From Octopus sinensis (taxonomy: Eukaryota), in the NCBI RefSeq assembly GCF_006345805.1, contig NC_042999.1, positions 78,492,001 through 78,556,000 on the forward strand: DNA of 64,000 nt. The letters are read 5' to 3'. The notes below the pieces were generated by a model. The model made no database searches, was not told where the DNA came from, and saw only the letters and a list, made by a program, of their open reading frames with translations. A program made the translations under genes and the position numbers. Of this stretch, positions 1-14,160 are shown one piece after another. Within the stretch, counting starts at the first letter, position 1; each line of letters starts with the position of its first letter.

Positions 1-457
1 CTGTTTAATGGTAAACTAACCTGATTAAATTAAATCAAGCCAATCTTCCATAGGCCCTTAGAATCATCAGTAGAAATAGCCAAGTCGGAACAGATATTTT
101 CACGAGGCATTTCCGTCCCTGCCTCGGCAATATCTGACCTAAAATTTTCAAATCATCGCACTCGCGCCAAATTTATCGGCAGCAAATAAATATAAGCCGC
201 CGATTCCATTACGGAATTAACCAGAAAATTCATAATTAATCAATATAGGGTGGCAAAAAATTTTGTAGAATTTTTTTGCCACCAGCGGCCTAGTGGGAAA
301 AAGTTAAATAGTCATAGACCATTTTTAAGTTCAACATCACAATCAAGGAACGGCCATAATAGGCCATTCACCCACTAGAAATAACAGCCAATGCTTCAAC
401 CGCAAAATAACATCAATTCCGTAAACCAGGAGAAAATTAAAAAACATTTACCCTGTA

Positions 458-564
458 ATTTCTTATACGATGCACCGTTTCATCTACTGTTTAATGGTAA
501 ACTAACCTGATTAAATTAAATCAAGCCAATCTTCCATAGGCCCTTAGAATCATCAGTAAGAAAT
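458..564 (-). ncRNA. Type I hammerhead ribozyme (array copy)
   Basis: Minus strand reads AUUUCUUA-CUGAUGA-[long stem II]-GAAAC-GGUGCAUC-GUA^UAAGAAAU. Perfect 8-bp stem I (557-564 with 458-465), intact core (550-556 and 477-481), quasi-palindromic stem III, GUA cleavage triplet at 468-466. Confidence 0.85.
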
Positions 565-944
565 AGCCAAGTCGGAACAGATATTTTCACGAGGCATTTC
601 CGTCCCTGCCTCGGCAATATATGACCTAAAATTTTCAAATCATCGCACTCGCGCCAAATTTATCGGCAGCAAATAAATATAAGCCGCCGATTCCATTACG
701 GAATTAACCAGAAAATTCATAATTAATCAATATAGGGTGGCAAAAAATTTTGTAGAATTTTTTTGCCACCAGCGGTCTAGTGGGAAAAAGTTAAATAGTC
801 ATAGACCATTTTTAAGTTCAACATCACAATCAAGGAACGGCCATAATAGGCCATTCACCCACTAGAAATAACAGCCAATGCTTCAACCGCAAAATAACAT
901 CAATTCCGTAAACCAGGAGAAAATTAAAAAACATTTACCCTGTA

Positions 945-1051
945 ATTTCTTATACGATGCACCGTTTCATCTACTGTTTAATGGTAAACTAACCTGATTA
1001 AATTAAATCAAGCCAATCTTCCATAGGCCCTTAGAATCATCAGTAAGAAAT
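945..1051 (-). ncRNA. Type I hammerhead ribozyme (array copy)
   Basis: Same sequence as the 458-564 copy, shifted by 487 bp. CUGAUGA at 1043-1037; predicted cleavage between 953 and 952. Confidence 0.85.
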
Positions 1052-2439
1052 AGCCAAGTCGGAACAGATATTTTCACGAGGCATTTCCGTCCCTGCCTCG
1101 GCAATATCAAGCGCGTGTCAGCAACTTGGCTACGCTGAGTTAGAATCCTGATTGAAGGCTATGCGTGCAAAGGCTTATAAAGCAGAAGTTAAAACGAACT
1201 TGGAGAGGCACTACTAAAGAGTTGACTTCACGACATGTCAACAGAATACACTCAAGACAGCTATAAAAATACAAGCAAGATGTCGAACCCTGTAAGCTAA
1301 CGAAACACTTAAGAGGGAACCTTTACGTGTTGGCTCAGGTTACAAGAAATAGCAGCCAAATTTCCCTGAGTTCCTTGCTGAAAAATAATCCACATTGAAT
1401 AATGTGATCTAGAGTTACATAGTGTCTGAGAAGATGGCGGGAATGTCCTTTTCCGTATGTCCACTCGATCTGGGCTAAGGGCTGCATTGGATCTAAACAA
1501 CAATAAAGAAGCACTCAACAATGTTCTTTTGCTTTGTATTTACAACCGTGAATCACGCCTAGAGTGTGGGTAGCAGCTATCAGTTTTCTCGGGTTTCATA
1601 AACATATAGTTAGAAAATCATCTGAGAATTATTTTAGGAGACGAACTCATCACAATGCATCTCATAAAACGATATGGATCTCTGATCAGTCATATAAATC
1701 GCTACTCTCAATACAGCAATCAACTTTTTTCTTCTTCATTCACCCTAGAAAACTTACCCAACCAGTTTATTTTAGATTCTGTTCGTCTTCCATTTTCACA
1801 GGAAATTTCTTCCCTTTTTTTAATTCCACTACAACGGTTCAGGTAACTTACTTAAAAAACGCTACTGTTCAGCTCTTTAACAATTGCATTCAACACAGAT
1901 AATTTGCTATAACACAGATCTCTCTAGTCTCTTCTGTTGACCTTAAGATCGTTAGTTGGCGTCAAAACATTGAGCATGAAGCTTTACTTTATTTACGACT
2001 AGTCAATAAAAATAGCAGGTAATCTCCCAAATATTACCACTACAGAAAACTTATTTTGTCTCAGAATTCTAAATACGATTTTCCAATAATCACAGAGCTC
2101 ATACCTGTATTATACGGAAAACCCATGTCACTCTTATGAGTTATTAAACAAAAATGATTTCCCCATATTTCTTAATGATAAAAAAACAACCAAAAACTCA
2201 TGCAATAATTTATTTCGAAAGTAATGACAAAAACCGTTTTTTAATAAAATAAAATTAAAAAGAAAATGTTTAAAAAGAGATTTTATCATAGGTAAACACA
2301 GGCATTAATCCTAGATGTGTTATGTCAAAAGAAAAAAAAGACAAGACGGTTACGGTTGGAAAGCTTTCGGTCACGATTAGAAACCCATTTTGCGAAATCT
2401 TGCAATCATCGGCAACTCTTAGACCAATATATCTTCCTT

Positions 2440-3090
2440 TATCGAGGACATCTATCCCACTCCAATCGCTCTCCGAAGTCATCTTCCTCAATGATTTCAA
2501 TGTCTACAATTATTCTTGGATCACACATTCATCCCATACTCGATGTTGTTAGTGTACAAACCAAATACTTCACAATTCTCAACTTTATACAATTAATTTT
2601 GTTCCCTACATTCATCCATGACCAAATACCCTTGATCCCTTGCTGTGAAGTCTTGGTCATCACGAACTTATTACGACTGTGGGATAAACTTTCTGTAACT
2701 TCTTGACGGTTGCATAACTCGCTGCTATTCGTAAAGGACCGATGGATCACGCAGTCTGTATTTGTACTGAAAATGGAGATTGAACGAGCTTTTACTCCTT
2801 GGCTCAACATGTGGTTTTTGTTGACATTGAACTCGCTTTGTGATGCCTGCGTCATCGTTTGGTAGACGTACTGCTTCGCTCAAACTCTCCGGTCACTGTT
2901 TCCAACCAAGAGTCGTGCATCGGTTGCATTGGAGCCTGTGAAAGCACATGGCTTGCAGTACATGCTTTGTACCAGATATTAAAAAAAAACTGTTCGATGA
3001 CGGTTCAATTCCATTCCTACGGAATGTACGAAGAAACTTTTCTAGTGACGGGTTTTCGTCGTCTCCGAGGCGCCTAATATTCGACAAGCA
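2440..3090 (+). mobile_element. Decayed LINE (Jockey/CR1-group) AP-endonuclease and linker remnant
   Basis: Fragments SEVIFLNDFNVYNYSWITHSSHT and FTILNFIQLILFPTFIHD resemble the GDFN..W and L.QLV..PTRIPD motifs of LINE endonucleases. Frameshifted. Confidence 0.5.
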
Positions 3091-9175: not shown

Positions 9176-12100
9176 ACTATTCGTGGCTCAAAGAGGCACG
9201 CAACATCAACTATATAGTACATATGGTGCACATTGTCCACCACCACTAGGTCCGGTTTGTTTCCTGTGTAACTTTTTGAAGATAGTTAAGAGGTTTTTCA
9301 TGGGCATGTTGGCTCTGCATTCGCTCCGGCTTCAGGAAATATTTAGCTTATTGTCAATATACAGTTGCCATACCTTCAATGCTTCCCCAGTAGTGACCAT
9401 GCCTAAAAGAATGGTTGGCAGGGATGTGTTCTACTTTTGAAGAGTTGATATTACTCCTATTCAAAGTGGTATTCGGTTGGTCTTTAAGCCGCTTCTTTGG
9501 AGTTCCAGACAGGCATTGACTAAGATGCAGCTGAGAAAAGAATATCCCATGGGAGAGACAAGAGTCAGATACACCCACTATATGAGTCATCTGTGTCTGA
9601 ACTATCTTAGTTGATGCATGTATAGTATGAATCCAATGTTTATGGTGTTAGTTCGTAGGAAAATGTCTGTGTGGATAACCATATTTCGCTAGAGGAGTGG
9701 AAAGTTATTCTGGAGACACTGGATATTAAAGGCTTCCAATTTCTTAGTGTCGGGTTTATATTGCCCATGGAGGTTAATATTTAGACAGGGTCTCCTCATA
9801 AGCCTTCCAAAGGATGCAGAAGACTGTTAGAGGTTTATCTGAGGCTGTTTTGAATTTTCATGTCCAGCATACAGATGATGGAAATGATGGTGCAAAATGT
9901 AAATAATTGCTGCTGTTAGACTGCGAAAGTGGGGAGGATGGAAGAAACTGTGCAGTGAGCTATTAATATATGGCATCAGTGTTCTGGTTGTTAACTGTCA
10001 GAGCTATTCCCTTATAAGTTGTAATACCTATTAAAGTGATGGCCTGCAGGTTTTCGGACTGTGATCGGCTATACCACGGTCATCAGCATACTATAACTCA
10101 ACAATCTGTTCAAATATCAGTTTGATGGTAGCCTACAACCTTCTGATATTGAAACAGTTCCTGTTAGATTTGATTTTAAGAGTTACTCATACTTTTTGTT
10201 TTCTATCCCTGCGTGATCATACAAATGAAACATGTGAGCCCGCATAGAATCTTGCCTGATTTTCGTTTTCACATTGAAAGTCTCAGATTTTGCCATCCAT
10301 CAACAACTTGGGACATCATCCATTCAGAAGTTGGTTGAGGTGATTCACAATATGCCAGAAAACCAAATTACCTAAGCACAAATTCATAGTTCACAGTGTC
10401 AAAAGCCTTTGATAAATCCACAAGTGCTATGAACAAGACCTGATGTTGCACCTTATAAAGATTATGTCTTAATGGATGTAATGTTTTCTAATATTGATTA
10501 AATTTATCTTTTGAGCGTGATCTGATGGAAAAAACAGAACAATTTTGTCACCCTTGTTTTTGTAGATGTTGAGAATGTTGACTTCCTTCTAGCATGACTC
10601 TACATCACTGTGATGTAGAGATAAAGTGTAATGTGCTGGGGTAATCAATTTCCTTCAAATTCTCGGCAGTAATATTATCTGGTACAGAAGATATTCTTTT
10701 TCTTCTCAACGTTTTGACAACAGCACTAACCTCGACAAAGTCCAGTGATTTATGAAGATAATGGATAATAAGAATTTCACAAATTCCCGTAGGGTTGCTA
10801 GATCCTCTGATTTTGGCTGTTTTAGGATTAAGTTCAAGCGTTCAACACAGGACACTACAGTTGGTGACTAATATTTCAGTAGAGATGTGGACTCCGATAT
10901 CTTGACTGTTTACACCATAGCTTCCCAACGTGGACGATTTCAACTTACAGGTGGGCTATGGGTGAATTTCTAGAAAATGTTGGGCGATTTGAGATTTTGG
11001 CGGGCGATATGAACATTTTGTGGGTGAGAATGAATTTTTAAAAATTAAGTCTGCATTTACTGATATCTAGGCATGCCTACAATAAGGATGCACTCGCATG
11101 ATACATCCCTTTGTATTAAAAACGCGAACTTGTTTATCGATCGAATATTTTTGTTGCAGTTATTGAGATGTAGCCAAATAGGCCTAGGCCTTAAATCACA
11201 CTCCACTACAATTTTTTTTTCTCAAGTCTCGCGTGTAGAATTCAAATTCGCAAAAAGTTCCTGAAAACTCCGAAAAATAAAAAAAGTTATGAGGGGTTAT
11301 ATGTCGTGCGTAATTCTGTGGCTTCATATCAATAACACAAGTGCTATTTTCAGGATGTTGACAAAATGTGCAGTCAGGCACAAAATGACAGCTTTGAAAT
11401 CTTGTTTCTTGACTGGGTGAAAATGATCAAACTTTAAACTTCTATAACTTTTTTAAAACATTTTTTTCTGGGAAAAGTTGAATAGCTCCAGCAATTTAGC
11501 TTGGAAAGGTACATTAATGTGCCAAATTTTAAATTTTAGATAAACTTGAATTTTTGAAATGCTGGCAGCCAAACGAACTAGATCCCTATTTGCTCCAGTA
11601 AAGACGTGCCATCTGACTCTGCTCTATTGACTTCTTCTTCTCTTTGGGAATACCATACTGCTTTTCTGTCGCCATCTGTAGAAATTCGTTTTCACATTTT
11701 CACGTTATTGATGCCTCCAGTTAAGTAAGTTTGTCGACAGTACAGTAGTCATTATTTATCGTTTGGATTTATTCCCTCTCCTCAGAACTGTTAGTTACCA
11801 ATGTGCCTTCTTTGCCATCAGACATTGACCAACGAAGCAATGAAACCTTCACGCTTGAAGTATCACTTTGATGCAAAGCGTTCTGACAAGAATGACAAGC
11901 CGTTATACTTTTTGCAACTGAGCTCCTCTTTCAAAAAGTAAATACAAAAATTCAGCACACTACTCCAGGAAACTAGTAAAAAGGAGAATGACGGGTTGAA
12001 TTGTCTTGTACAACATCGCATTGCTTGTTGCTTAGTCTGGGAAGTTTCACACAATTGGAGAAACATTAGTTCGCCCAGTTATCGAAGAAGTTTTGTCAAC

Positions 12101-14160
12101 CGTTATGCACGAAAACCCGATGACATGAAGATTCCACTTAGTAATAACTCAATTTCTCGAAGCTTCGATGAAATGGTCAACAATGTCAAACATCAGCTCA
12201 ATATTCTCCAGCATTCTGAATTTTCTATACGAGTGAATAAGTCAACTGTTGTGGACAATCAAAGTTTGATGATGGTATGTGTTCGGTATTTCAGCAAAAT
12301 CTTGTGAGGAAATGCTGTTCACAGAGAAATTTCCACTTGATTCAAGAGGTGCAACTATTTTTCACACTCTCAAGTCTTTCCTTTTTGAACATAATTTCAC
12401 GTTTTAGAACATGATATCCTAAAACGTGAAATTACGCACCAGATACTAACTGTTCATTGCTTGGCACATCGGCAGCATTTAGTGGCAAAAAATATGAACA
12501 GTTGGTTGAATAATGCGCTACTGTTAGTTATCAAGACTGGGAACAAATTGAAGTCCAGTCCCTTGTCTGATCGAATTTTCTTCCAACTCTGTCTGAGAAA
12601 TGATGAGAATCATACCAAACTCTTATACCATACCGAAGTGCGGTGGCTGCCAAAAGAGAACTGTGTTTTACGCTTTGTTGAACTGTTTTATATAATCATA
12701 TCTTTCTTTGAAGATACTCCACTATCCGCTTCATTGATGGCTGCAAGGTACGATAGCTTTTTTCTTTGTAATATATTCACAAAATTATATAAGTTATTGC
12801 AAGGAAACAAAAAATTCCGCTGATTGTAAATCATTTATCACTACCTTCATTTCAAAATTGGTGTTGTATAAGACTAACATTTCAAAATGTCAATTCCATC
12901 AATTTCCACAACTTGATTCTTTGAAAGATGAGTTAGTTGATGAGGATTTAACTACATATCACAACTATTTGCAATCATTGCATGATAACATGGTGGAGCG
13001 ATTTTAAGATGTTATTGTGCTGAATATTCCAAATTGGTATAGCAATCCATGTGAGGTCGATGCAGTTATTTGCAAGGATGACATTCAGTAGGAATTGATA
13101 GAATTACAAAATGACAATGACGCCACAATGCGATATTGCCATAATGGCAAAGAAGGTTTGTAGTACCATCAGAGAATATTGAATTCTAACCCGAGTCTAT
13201 GGAAACCTCTGAAATTACTTTTGCTTGCCTTCCCTACCTCATACCTGGTTCAATCTGGTTTTAACCATGTTGGAACTTTACTTTCCCATAAAAGAATTGG
13301 ACTGGATGTGACACAACAAGGAGACTTACGGCTAAAGTTGATAAGTTTGAAACTGAATGTATCTGCACTATCTGCATTGCACCAGACACATGGTTCTCAT
13401 TAAAAAGCTTTATTCTTTTCTGTTATAATACAATCATTAATTATTTTTGCATTGGTAGTTCTGATCAATGGTTCACTTAGGGAAAATGATAATCAATGTA
13501 AAAGAAAGCGAAAGTTTCCAGAAGTTAATCTGTCTGAAAAATATAGATTTAAAGTTAGAATTTTCTTGACACTAATGGCAAAACTAAACCCACAATAAGG
13601 TGTTTGTAAACAACTGCATATTTAGTACAAACGGCACTAACAGGGCAACGAGTCTACGATATAGTGTGTGTGTGTGTGTCAAATGATATGGGGGGTGGGG
13701 TAGGGGATTTTGTGTTGGGGGGGGTCGAGGTTTTTTTTACACAGGTGGGCGATGGAGCATTTTTTGGCCGATAGGTGGGCGATATTGCAATTTGGCGCGA
13801 AAAGTTCAGGAACACTGGTTTACACGGGACATTTTCTGAGGCCATAGAGGCTATATATTGCATCACTGAAATTGTGCCTGTCATGAATATTTGTATGCAT
13901 CTGGATTTCTTGGAATTTTTCAATCCACCAAAGTCCAAGGGCAACTAAAGTCTCATTATGAGGGACTCGTCTCTGGTTTTTTAAAATATATGATTAGAGA
14001 TTGTCTAAAGTTACTATGTGGCCCTTTTACATATCATTCAGGAGATTGGTGATTGTTCTAGAACTCACAGCAAACTAGTCTTGATGTGTTTTTTTTTAAA
14101 ATCTGATGATATCATCGGCAGCATCATCATGTGGAATTTAGAGTGGCTCAGTCATCTGGG
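9175..14160 (-). mobile_element. Decayed RTE (BovB-like) LINE, split by the hAT insertion
   Basis: Minus-strand RT motif LFIALVDLSKAFDTVN at ~10390-10445, C-terminal GTPKKRLKDQ (ORF 9354-9590), and upstream QEIQMHT-like linker at ~13830-13930 on the far side of the hAT element. Confidence 0.75.
10916..13817 (+). mobile_element. Buster/Charlie-type hAT DNA transposon with decayed transposase (ZBED5/SCAND3-like)
   Basis: Perfect 8-bp TSD GTTTACAC (10908-10915 and 13818-13825). Ends catagcttcccaac...gttcaggaacactg. Transposase fragments NEAMKPSRLK, IPLSNNSISR, HCLAHRQHLVAK, LLYHTEVRWL, AFPTSYLV.SGF and GDLRLKL, with stops and frameshifts. Confidence 0.92.

Follow-up and report, generated by a model that had tools for sequence, protein, structure and literature searches.

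A dispersed octopus retrozyme with compensatory changes in its ribozyme-strand helices, likely copied into (AT)n tracts from two fixed sites by a Penelope-like enzyme

The window analysed here, a stretch of 64,000 nucleotides from Octopus sinensis, opens with a tandem repeat whose unit is filled with nested inverted repeats. Such a unit raises the question of whether its self-complementarity serves an RNA or a DNA, and how the repeat has spread. A sequence-only reading had proposed that selection acts on the RNA structure of the ribozyme-sense strand, as in a compact, viroid-like branched RNA rather than a DNA satellite. The answer that we consider probable is that the repeat is a non-LTR retrozyme in which compensatory changes keep the ribozyme-strand helices intact, and that the enzyme of a Penelope-like element (PLE), starting from two fixed sites, likely copied it into (AT)n tracts. 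Comparisons with published work below refer to the accessible portions of the cited texts. The element in the window comprises:

1..1107, minus strand: 487-bp retrozyme units in tandem, of which 2.3 fall inside the window; 99% identity between copies
466..952, minus strand: monomer RNA predicted from sequence and folds, between hammerhead cleavage sites 953/952 and 466/465

The array reaches beyond position 1 by 258 bases, to an (AT)n tract (the "long" end, see below), is truncated at its 5' end at position 1107 and forms a single arm. The flank at 1108-1700 is nearly single-copy, so that no second arm or partner lies beside the window copy. No frame of at least 80 aa overlaps 1-1107, and arrays bounded by (AT)n have no LTR organisation. 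Among 242 matches from 40 of 1,428 candidates scored, unit arrays are dispersed over 40 loci on many contigs with 94-99% identity, and a hammerhead pattern search of the 2.7 Gb genome returned 592 strict matches (0 in the control) and 3,992 looser ones (1 in the control). A sister family of about 473 bp (family 2) is about 70-75% identical to the 487-bp unit (family 1). Judged by its sequence, the 487-bp unit is a dispersed non-coding non-LTR retrozyme with a predicted hammerhead: it combines short tandem units, each with a type I hammerhead, no coding or LTR sequence, recent mobility and a highly self-paired monomer.

Two other kinds of element have to be weighed against this assignment. A DNA satellite, or a derivative of a DNA transposon, with palindromes acting as DNA would account for the tandem organisation and for four perfect inverted repeats that function on either strand. 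However, a satellite forms long, clustered and locally homogenised arrays, whereas here dispersed arrays of 1-17 units are found in which neighbouring units are no more alike than distant ones. Short dispersed arrays with fixed 3' and variable 5' ends, inversion centres, a conserved ribozyme and a strand-asymmetric comparative fold largely refute the DNA reading, which we regard as scarcely credible; the earlier rejection of a satellite is thus borne out, the copies having been dispersed by a retrotransposon-type process. Hammerhead viroids (Avsunviroidae) are small, branched, hammerhead-bearing RNAs, and the size, branched fold and hammerhead of the unit would also suit an endogenised viroid-like RNA with RNA-to-RNA replication. 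Ribozymes of both polarities and replication without a DNA form would then be expected, but the ribozyme is seen in one polarity only, thousands of genomic copies carry retrotransposon-type ends, and the branched fold has an ordinary paired fraction. We therefore consider this origin very improbable, and "viroid-like" is better replaced by "genome-encoded retrozyme".

The predicted hammerhead and its periphery are composed as follows:

459..563, minus strand: predicted type I hammerhead, from sequence and covariation over 20 haplotypes; second copy at 946-1050
563-557 with 465-459, minus strand: stem I
556-550, minus strand: core CUGAUGA
548-545 with 486-483, minus strand: base of stem II, with U.U at 549/482
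481-478, minus strand: GAAA
478-475 with 470-467, minus strand: stem III, with a palindromic loop
468-466, minus strand: GUA triplet, cleavage predicted after GUA
500..531 (531-519 with 512-500), minus strand: distal stem II hairpin, 13 bp including 5 G.U; 98% of cells paired in 20 homologues, two pairs with double changes
539..568, minus strand: predicted pseudoknot, GGCU at 568-565 (just 5' of stem I) with GGCC at 542-539 (internal loop of stem II)

Rfam returned no hammerhead match, neither at the gathering score nor at E up to 10, probably owing to the long stem II. A total of 312 matches gave 91 haplotypes; in the 20 that were seen at least three times, the sequence of stems I, II and III varies while their pairing is kept. 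In 7 haplotypes the four pairs of the pseudoknot include two compensated positions and are mismatched in 1 of 28 cells, compared with 23 in 168 for swapped partners (permutation P = 0.02, relatedness ignored). In the monomer fold, stem III is given a probability close to zero. These sequence comparisons offer good support for selection on the ribozyme, and the maintenance of such a large ribozyme by compensation suggests that cleavage matters. It had also been claimed that full pairing of the distal stem II hairpin is a property of the minus strand alone, and this is what we find: all 13 pairs form there, 5 of them by G.U.

Five further inverted repeats had been listed for the unit. All ten arms lie at the coordinates given for them; four repeats are perfect, and the second has one mismatch, which is G.U on the minus strand and A.C on the plus strand:

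590-596/607-613, minus strand: repeat 1, hairpin; 89% of cells paired, no double change
662-670/683-691, minus strand: repeat 2, hairpin; 99% paired, one double change
696-705/902-911, minus strand: repeat 3, long-range helix; formable in 19 of 20 homologues, no double change
736-747/759-770, minus strand: repeat 4, hairpin; 94% paired, two double changes, directly 5' of the second start signal
777-784/858-865, minus strand: repeat 5, helix; 99% paired, two double changes, closing a domain that contains the first start signal

Strong prediction of repeat 3 is limited to the youngest subfamily; the consensus fold lacks it, and an alternative hairpin competes with it. Extensive self-complementarity is evident on both strands. 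Circular folding yields -146.8 kcal/mol for the minus strand (z = -7.1) and -101.7 for the plus strand (z = -5.7), values equalled by 0 of 60 shuffles; linear folding yields -150.9 (z = -5.9) and -105.6 (z = -4.3), equalled by 0 of 100 dinucleotide shuffles. The fold is branched and not rod-like, with about 60% of bases paired (63% in shuffles). The gap of 45 kcal/mol between the strands is mostly due to composition: the minus strand is G+U-rich, and the shuffles themselves differ by 34.

Could selection be confined to the ribozyme and the two start signals described below, the remaining fold and the G.U bias being by-products of a G+U-rich strand and of the history of the element? We hold this to be unlikely, although several results are in its favour. 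G.U makes up 14% of minus-strand pairs, below the 19% in shuffles, and when G.U is disallowed z is better for the plus strand (-7.3) than for the minus strand (-5.8). A strand-neutral helix count (16 G.U vs. 7 A.C) is not significant (P = 0.09; P = 0.45 against composition). Within family 1 no constraint was detected, as variants occur at 110 of 272 paired and 72 of 205 unpaired sites, with G.U vs. A.C at 17:11; repeats 1 and 3, moreover, are without double change. G.U enrichment is rejected as stand-alone proof of RNA selection, since 16:7 is within composition and the G.U share is below that of shuffles. Against the by-product explanation, repeats 2, 4 and 5 and the hairpin before the first start signal, which has double changes too, remain 94-99% paired over 25-30% divergence. 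Inherited variants also show no G.U-creating excess of A>G (17 vs. 19 T>C), and on the same counts A-to-I editing of templates is rejected as the source of the G.U pairs.

The comparison between families bears most directly on selection. In 20 real copies (11 of family 1 and 9 of family 2), the 63 pairs made up of the previously noted helices plus stem III are 96% paired, compared with 30-52% for slid controls; 8 of the 63 have double changes, a number equalled by 51 of 500 shuffles. Compensatory changes, as anticipated, are found in stems I-III, the pseudoknot and repeats 2, 4 and 5. The predicted strand asymmetry also emerges in the comparative fold: the circular consensus of the ribozyme strand reaches -99.9 kcal/mol (covariation 8.2, 117 pairs), whereas the other strand reaches -41.8 kcal/mol (covariation 1.8, 66 pairs). 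Watson-Crick pairs of family 2, which are defined on both strands, correspond in family 1 to G.U rather than A.C at 12:1 (L095) and 8:1 (L087); in the reverse direction, from family 1 to family 2, the ratio is just 13:6. Most of the covariation signal comes from one deep split between the two families. As far as these alignments go, selection is moderately supported for repeats 2, 4 and 5 and weakly for repeats 1 and 3. Selection on the ribozyme-sense RNA is thus upheld in part, by the compensatory changes and the strand-asymmetric comparative fold; the G.U pairs by themselves are no proof of it, constraint does not appear within the family, and two of the five repeats show no double change.

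To describe how the retrozyme inserts, 86 insertions were mapped in 85 loci, which were best-scoring or first-listed and are therefore biased to intact copies. In the RNA, two positions account for their 3' ends, one about 130 nt past the cleavage site (window ~823, "short") and one about 234 nt past it (window ~719, "long"). They are 104 nt apart; we call the interval 719-822 the "tail". Among 51 two-armed, back-to-back insertions of family 1, 46 combine a short with a long end, in no case do both arms share an end type, and in the other 5 one end lies elsewhere; another 20 insertions of family 1 are one-armed. The same rule holds for 11 of the 12 two-armed insertions of family 2, whose short ends were taken from a separate mapping because the 86-insertion mapping runs them too far into the AT tract. 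An AT-rich flank adjoins 138 of 149 3' ends, and the target is (AT)n, inside which target-site duplications are unreadable. At one locus (L052:2700) an arm stops at a third position, 59 nt downstream of cleavage, following an incomplete copy of the motif described below. PLEs are known for tandem and inverted 5'-truncated copies with a tail at one end only and a bias to microsatellites (PMC8557442), and reverse transcription by a PLE in vitro starts at two internal sites, the tail being the stretch between them (PMC11167929). The two-armed pattern matches the footprint of a Penelope "tail": tandem and inverted 5'-truncated arms carry a tail at one end, the target is an AT-rich microsatellite, and an autonomous PLE is present in the genome.

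Each of the two ends follows a copy of the same short motif:

823..835, minus strand: first CCUNNAUUG motif at 835-827 and short insertion end at ~823; inferred reverse-transcription start 1
719..736, minus strand: second CCUNNAUUG motif at 736-728 and long insertion end at ~719; inferred reverse-transcription start 2

Of 20 copies of the unit, 18 carry the motif, which was defined after the ends had been seen, two times per monomer, immediately ahead of the two ends. A genome search for twin CCUNNAUUG alone gave 5,861 matches vs. 1,648 in the control (about 28% chance). One recurring dissimilar sequence from this search is two-armed in (AT)n at all four of its loci, with one motif before each end, and one further locus with another sequence is likewise two-armed in (AT)n, its arms ending after one motif each. 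A search for CCUNNAUUG followed by an AT run gave 1,769 matches vs. 34 in the control, overlaps counted. Eleven loci were read from it: six more are two-armed insertions of the recurring sequence, which is a 585-594-bp hammerhead family, one is one-armed, two belong to a 445-bp hammerhead family with weak similarity to family 2 (E = 0.002), and two are chance-like. In all, 10 two-armed insertions of the dissimilar 585-594-bp family each end at one motif. Loci of these same-motif families are L158-L161, L187 and L196 (585-594 bp), L176 and L180 (445 bp) and L167 (unsized). These sequence patterns suggest that CCUNNAUUG is likely a start signal for a borrowed Penelope-type copying enzyme, common to several repeat families. 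More tentatively, and as something we would sooner doubt than assume, twin CCUNNAUUG copies about 100-110 nt apart, each 3' of a hairpin, could serve as a transferable signal at which a dimeric Penelope-type reverse transcriptase starts, carried by several dissimilar retrozyme families, with each cut DNA strand using a different copy on one RNA. If true, this would explain the PLE tail and the inverted arms, and a minimal RNA tag would be at hand for target-primed insertion with circles as templates.

What served as template can be read in part from variants within insertions. In 13 of 14 testable cases locus-private variants are present on both arms, and divergence is 0.78% across arms and 0.74% within the same arm; these results suggest that both arms derive from one source. 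The longest tested arm (L015:3647-8039) has a 4-unit periodicity (P = 0.012), as the only one of five informative arrays; 2-unit alternation occurs within single arms at L034 and L026, and some other arrays are homogeneous. The 4-unit period contradicts a pure monomer-circle origin for every array and suggests that templates are sometimes multimers or that blocks were duplicated later, an assembly artefact being also possible. These periodicities would fit an alternative with the same element and enzyme but no circle, in which the templates are linear, as multimers or read-through transcripts, and block duplication later lengthens the arrays. It would also accord with insertion by a PLE in vitro, which did not need hammerhead cleavage (PMC11167929), and with the slower cleavage that accompanies a U.U at the base of stem II in axolotl (PMC7229834). 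On the other hand, arms reach 17 units with neighbours no more alike than distant units, the compensated ribozyme suggests a role for cleavage, and other retrozymes produce abundant circles. We regard templates without circles as possible but rather doubtful.

Open PLE frames with reverse transcriptase (RT) and GIY-YIG domains are present in the genome (775 and 781 aa). At L031 (230-3366) one arm runs from the 3' end of a PLE through its ORF into the retrozyme, in the same sense, without an AT tract and with 2-nt microhomology, and the other arm is retrozyme with the short end. This chimera, 1 of 86 insertions, is best read as a template switch; two insertions and a deletion could also have produced it. 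Its PLE, 91% identical in protein to that at L067, belongs to a family with RT and GIY-YIG, a minimal hammerhead with a CUGAAGA core, (AT)n targets, ends without an exact CCUNNAUUG and a tail of about 37 nt (one inverted copy). No blastn match to the unit was found in 32 GIY-YIG loci (from 150 scored of 5,029 candidates), and five singleton loci gave no autonomous partner by homology. Since no PLE homologous to the unit was found, the PLE partner is, on sequence, a candidate. An older family (L058, L202-L221) has a hammerhead whose long stem II resembles that of this unit; a PLE with such a hammerhead behind it was rejected as partner, because an upstream PLE frame occurs in only 1 of 20 loci. 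Full-length PLEs at L069 and L073 have an unassigned 479-aa frame upstream of the 781-aa RT-endonuclease frame and, read by eye, a hammerhead-like motif with a U3/A8 core near the 3' end.

The retrozyme reading with a PLE enzyme could operate as follows. Arrays would be transcribed from the minus strand, and the hammerhead, aided by the loop-loop pseudoknot, would cut after GUA to release 487-nt monomers and uncut multimers, with circularisation possible. The branched fold would shield the RNA and display two U-rich stretches with CCUNNAUUG, both of them immediately 3' of a hairpin. A PLE RT/GIY-YIG protein would nick an (AT)n tract on both strands; each of the resulting DNA ends would prime at one of the two sites, giving back-to-back 5'-truncated arms from RNA of one source. 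Long arms may arise from repeated laps or multimeric templates, plus some later block duplication.

Traces of such an RNA may be present in sequencing runs. A>G and T>C changes, counted on both strands, account for 63 of 98, 44 of 71 and 78 of 107 changes in three runs guessed to be RNA, vs. 15 of 36 in a large run taken as DNA (P = 0.03, 0.06 and 0.001), with individuals differing between runs. The molecule type of each run is a guess, contigs cannot show strand, ends or circles, and tandem copies and circles share the same junction. When positions 620-1107 of the window are compared with runs X18, X14, X2 and X19, clustered T>C and A>G changes in the runs guessed to be RNA span the predicted cleavage site; cluster positions absent from X19 include 936, 950, 951, 965, 966 and 979. 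The excess and the clusters, on both strands, are hints of transcription and of A-to-I (hyper-)editing of long double strands from inverted arms.

Beyond the array, window 2691-2914 (minus strand) holds a degenerate piece of eukaryotic large-subunit rRNA (Rfam, 66 bits), with 13 other weak matches in the genome at 73-87%; it is probably an old rRNA pseudogene. Broken frames at 11942-13400 resemble what we take to be a decayed hAT-type (SPIN/Buster-like) transposase.

The retrozyme class is already known, and self-complementarity is expected for it and is the less surprising part of these results. The accessible literature (PMC7229834, PMC8557442) treats the mobilisation of animal retrozymes and the origin of the PLE tail and inverted ends as open questions. 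To these the present family offers a basis for in vitro tests, with two mapped start sites, a candidate shared signal, the strict pairing of one short with one long end, an open-frame candidate partner and a ribozyme model supported by covariation. In the literature we found no description of octopus or cephalopod retrozymes, although supplements of retrozyme papers could list such repeats, nor of a one-short-one-long rule, a 104-nt tail or a start motif common to families; the accessible text of PMC7229834 and bioRxiv 10.64898/2026.07.22.740005 holds no description of two-armed insertions, fixed ends, microsatellite targets or a start motif.

The unit resembles the metazoan non-LTR retrozymes of these two sources in that its tandem units are non-coding and carry a single type I hammerhead, in its GC content below 50%, in its highly self-paired predicted RNA and in its coexistence with PLEs; the U.U at the base of stem II is as in axolotl HHR_Amex2 (PMC7229834). 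At 487 nt it is longer than the tested retrozyme RNAs (170-400 nt) and within the range of 51-972 bp in bioRxiv 10.64898/2026.07.22.740005. It differs from metazoan retrozymes in its stem II of about 70 nt with a pseudoknot, and no homologous PLE terminal repeat was found for it among the 32 GIY-YIG loci. A stabilising Watson-Crick contact between the peripheries of stems I and II is predicted in about 40% of hammerheads (PMC3088659); the pseudoknot of the unit shares this contact but differs in being a prediction of 4-5 bp that reaches into the internal loop of an extended stem II. Unlike Avsunviroidae, the unit is genome-encoded, has a ribozyme of one polarity and would be spread by reverse transcription. 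As for PLEs, the unit has no ORF, its tail is 104 nt rather than 30-40, and its predicted starts lie in U-rich segments after CCUNNAUUG, whereas PLEs start in an AC-rich stem-loop; it shares with them tandem and inverted truncated copies, a single-ended tail, a preference for microsatellites, cuts in AT-rich DNA on both strands and two internal reverse-transcription starts (PMC8557442, PMC11167929).
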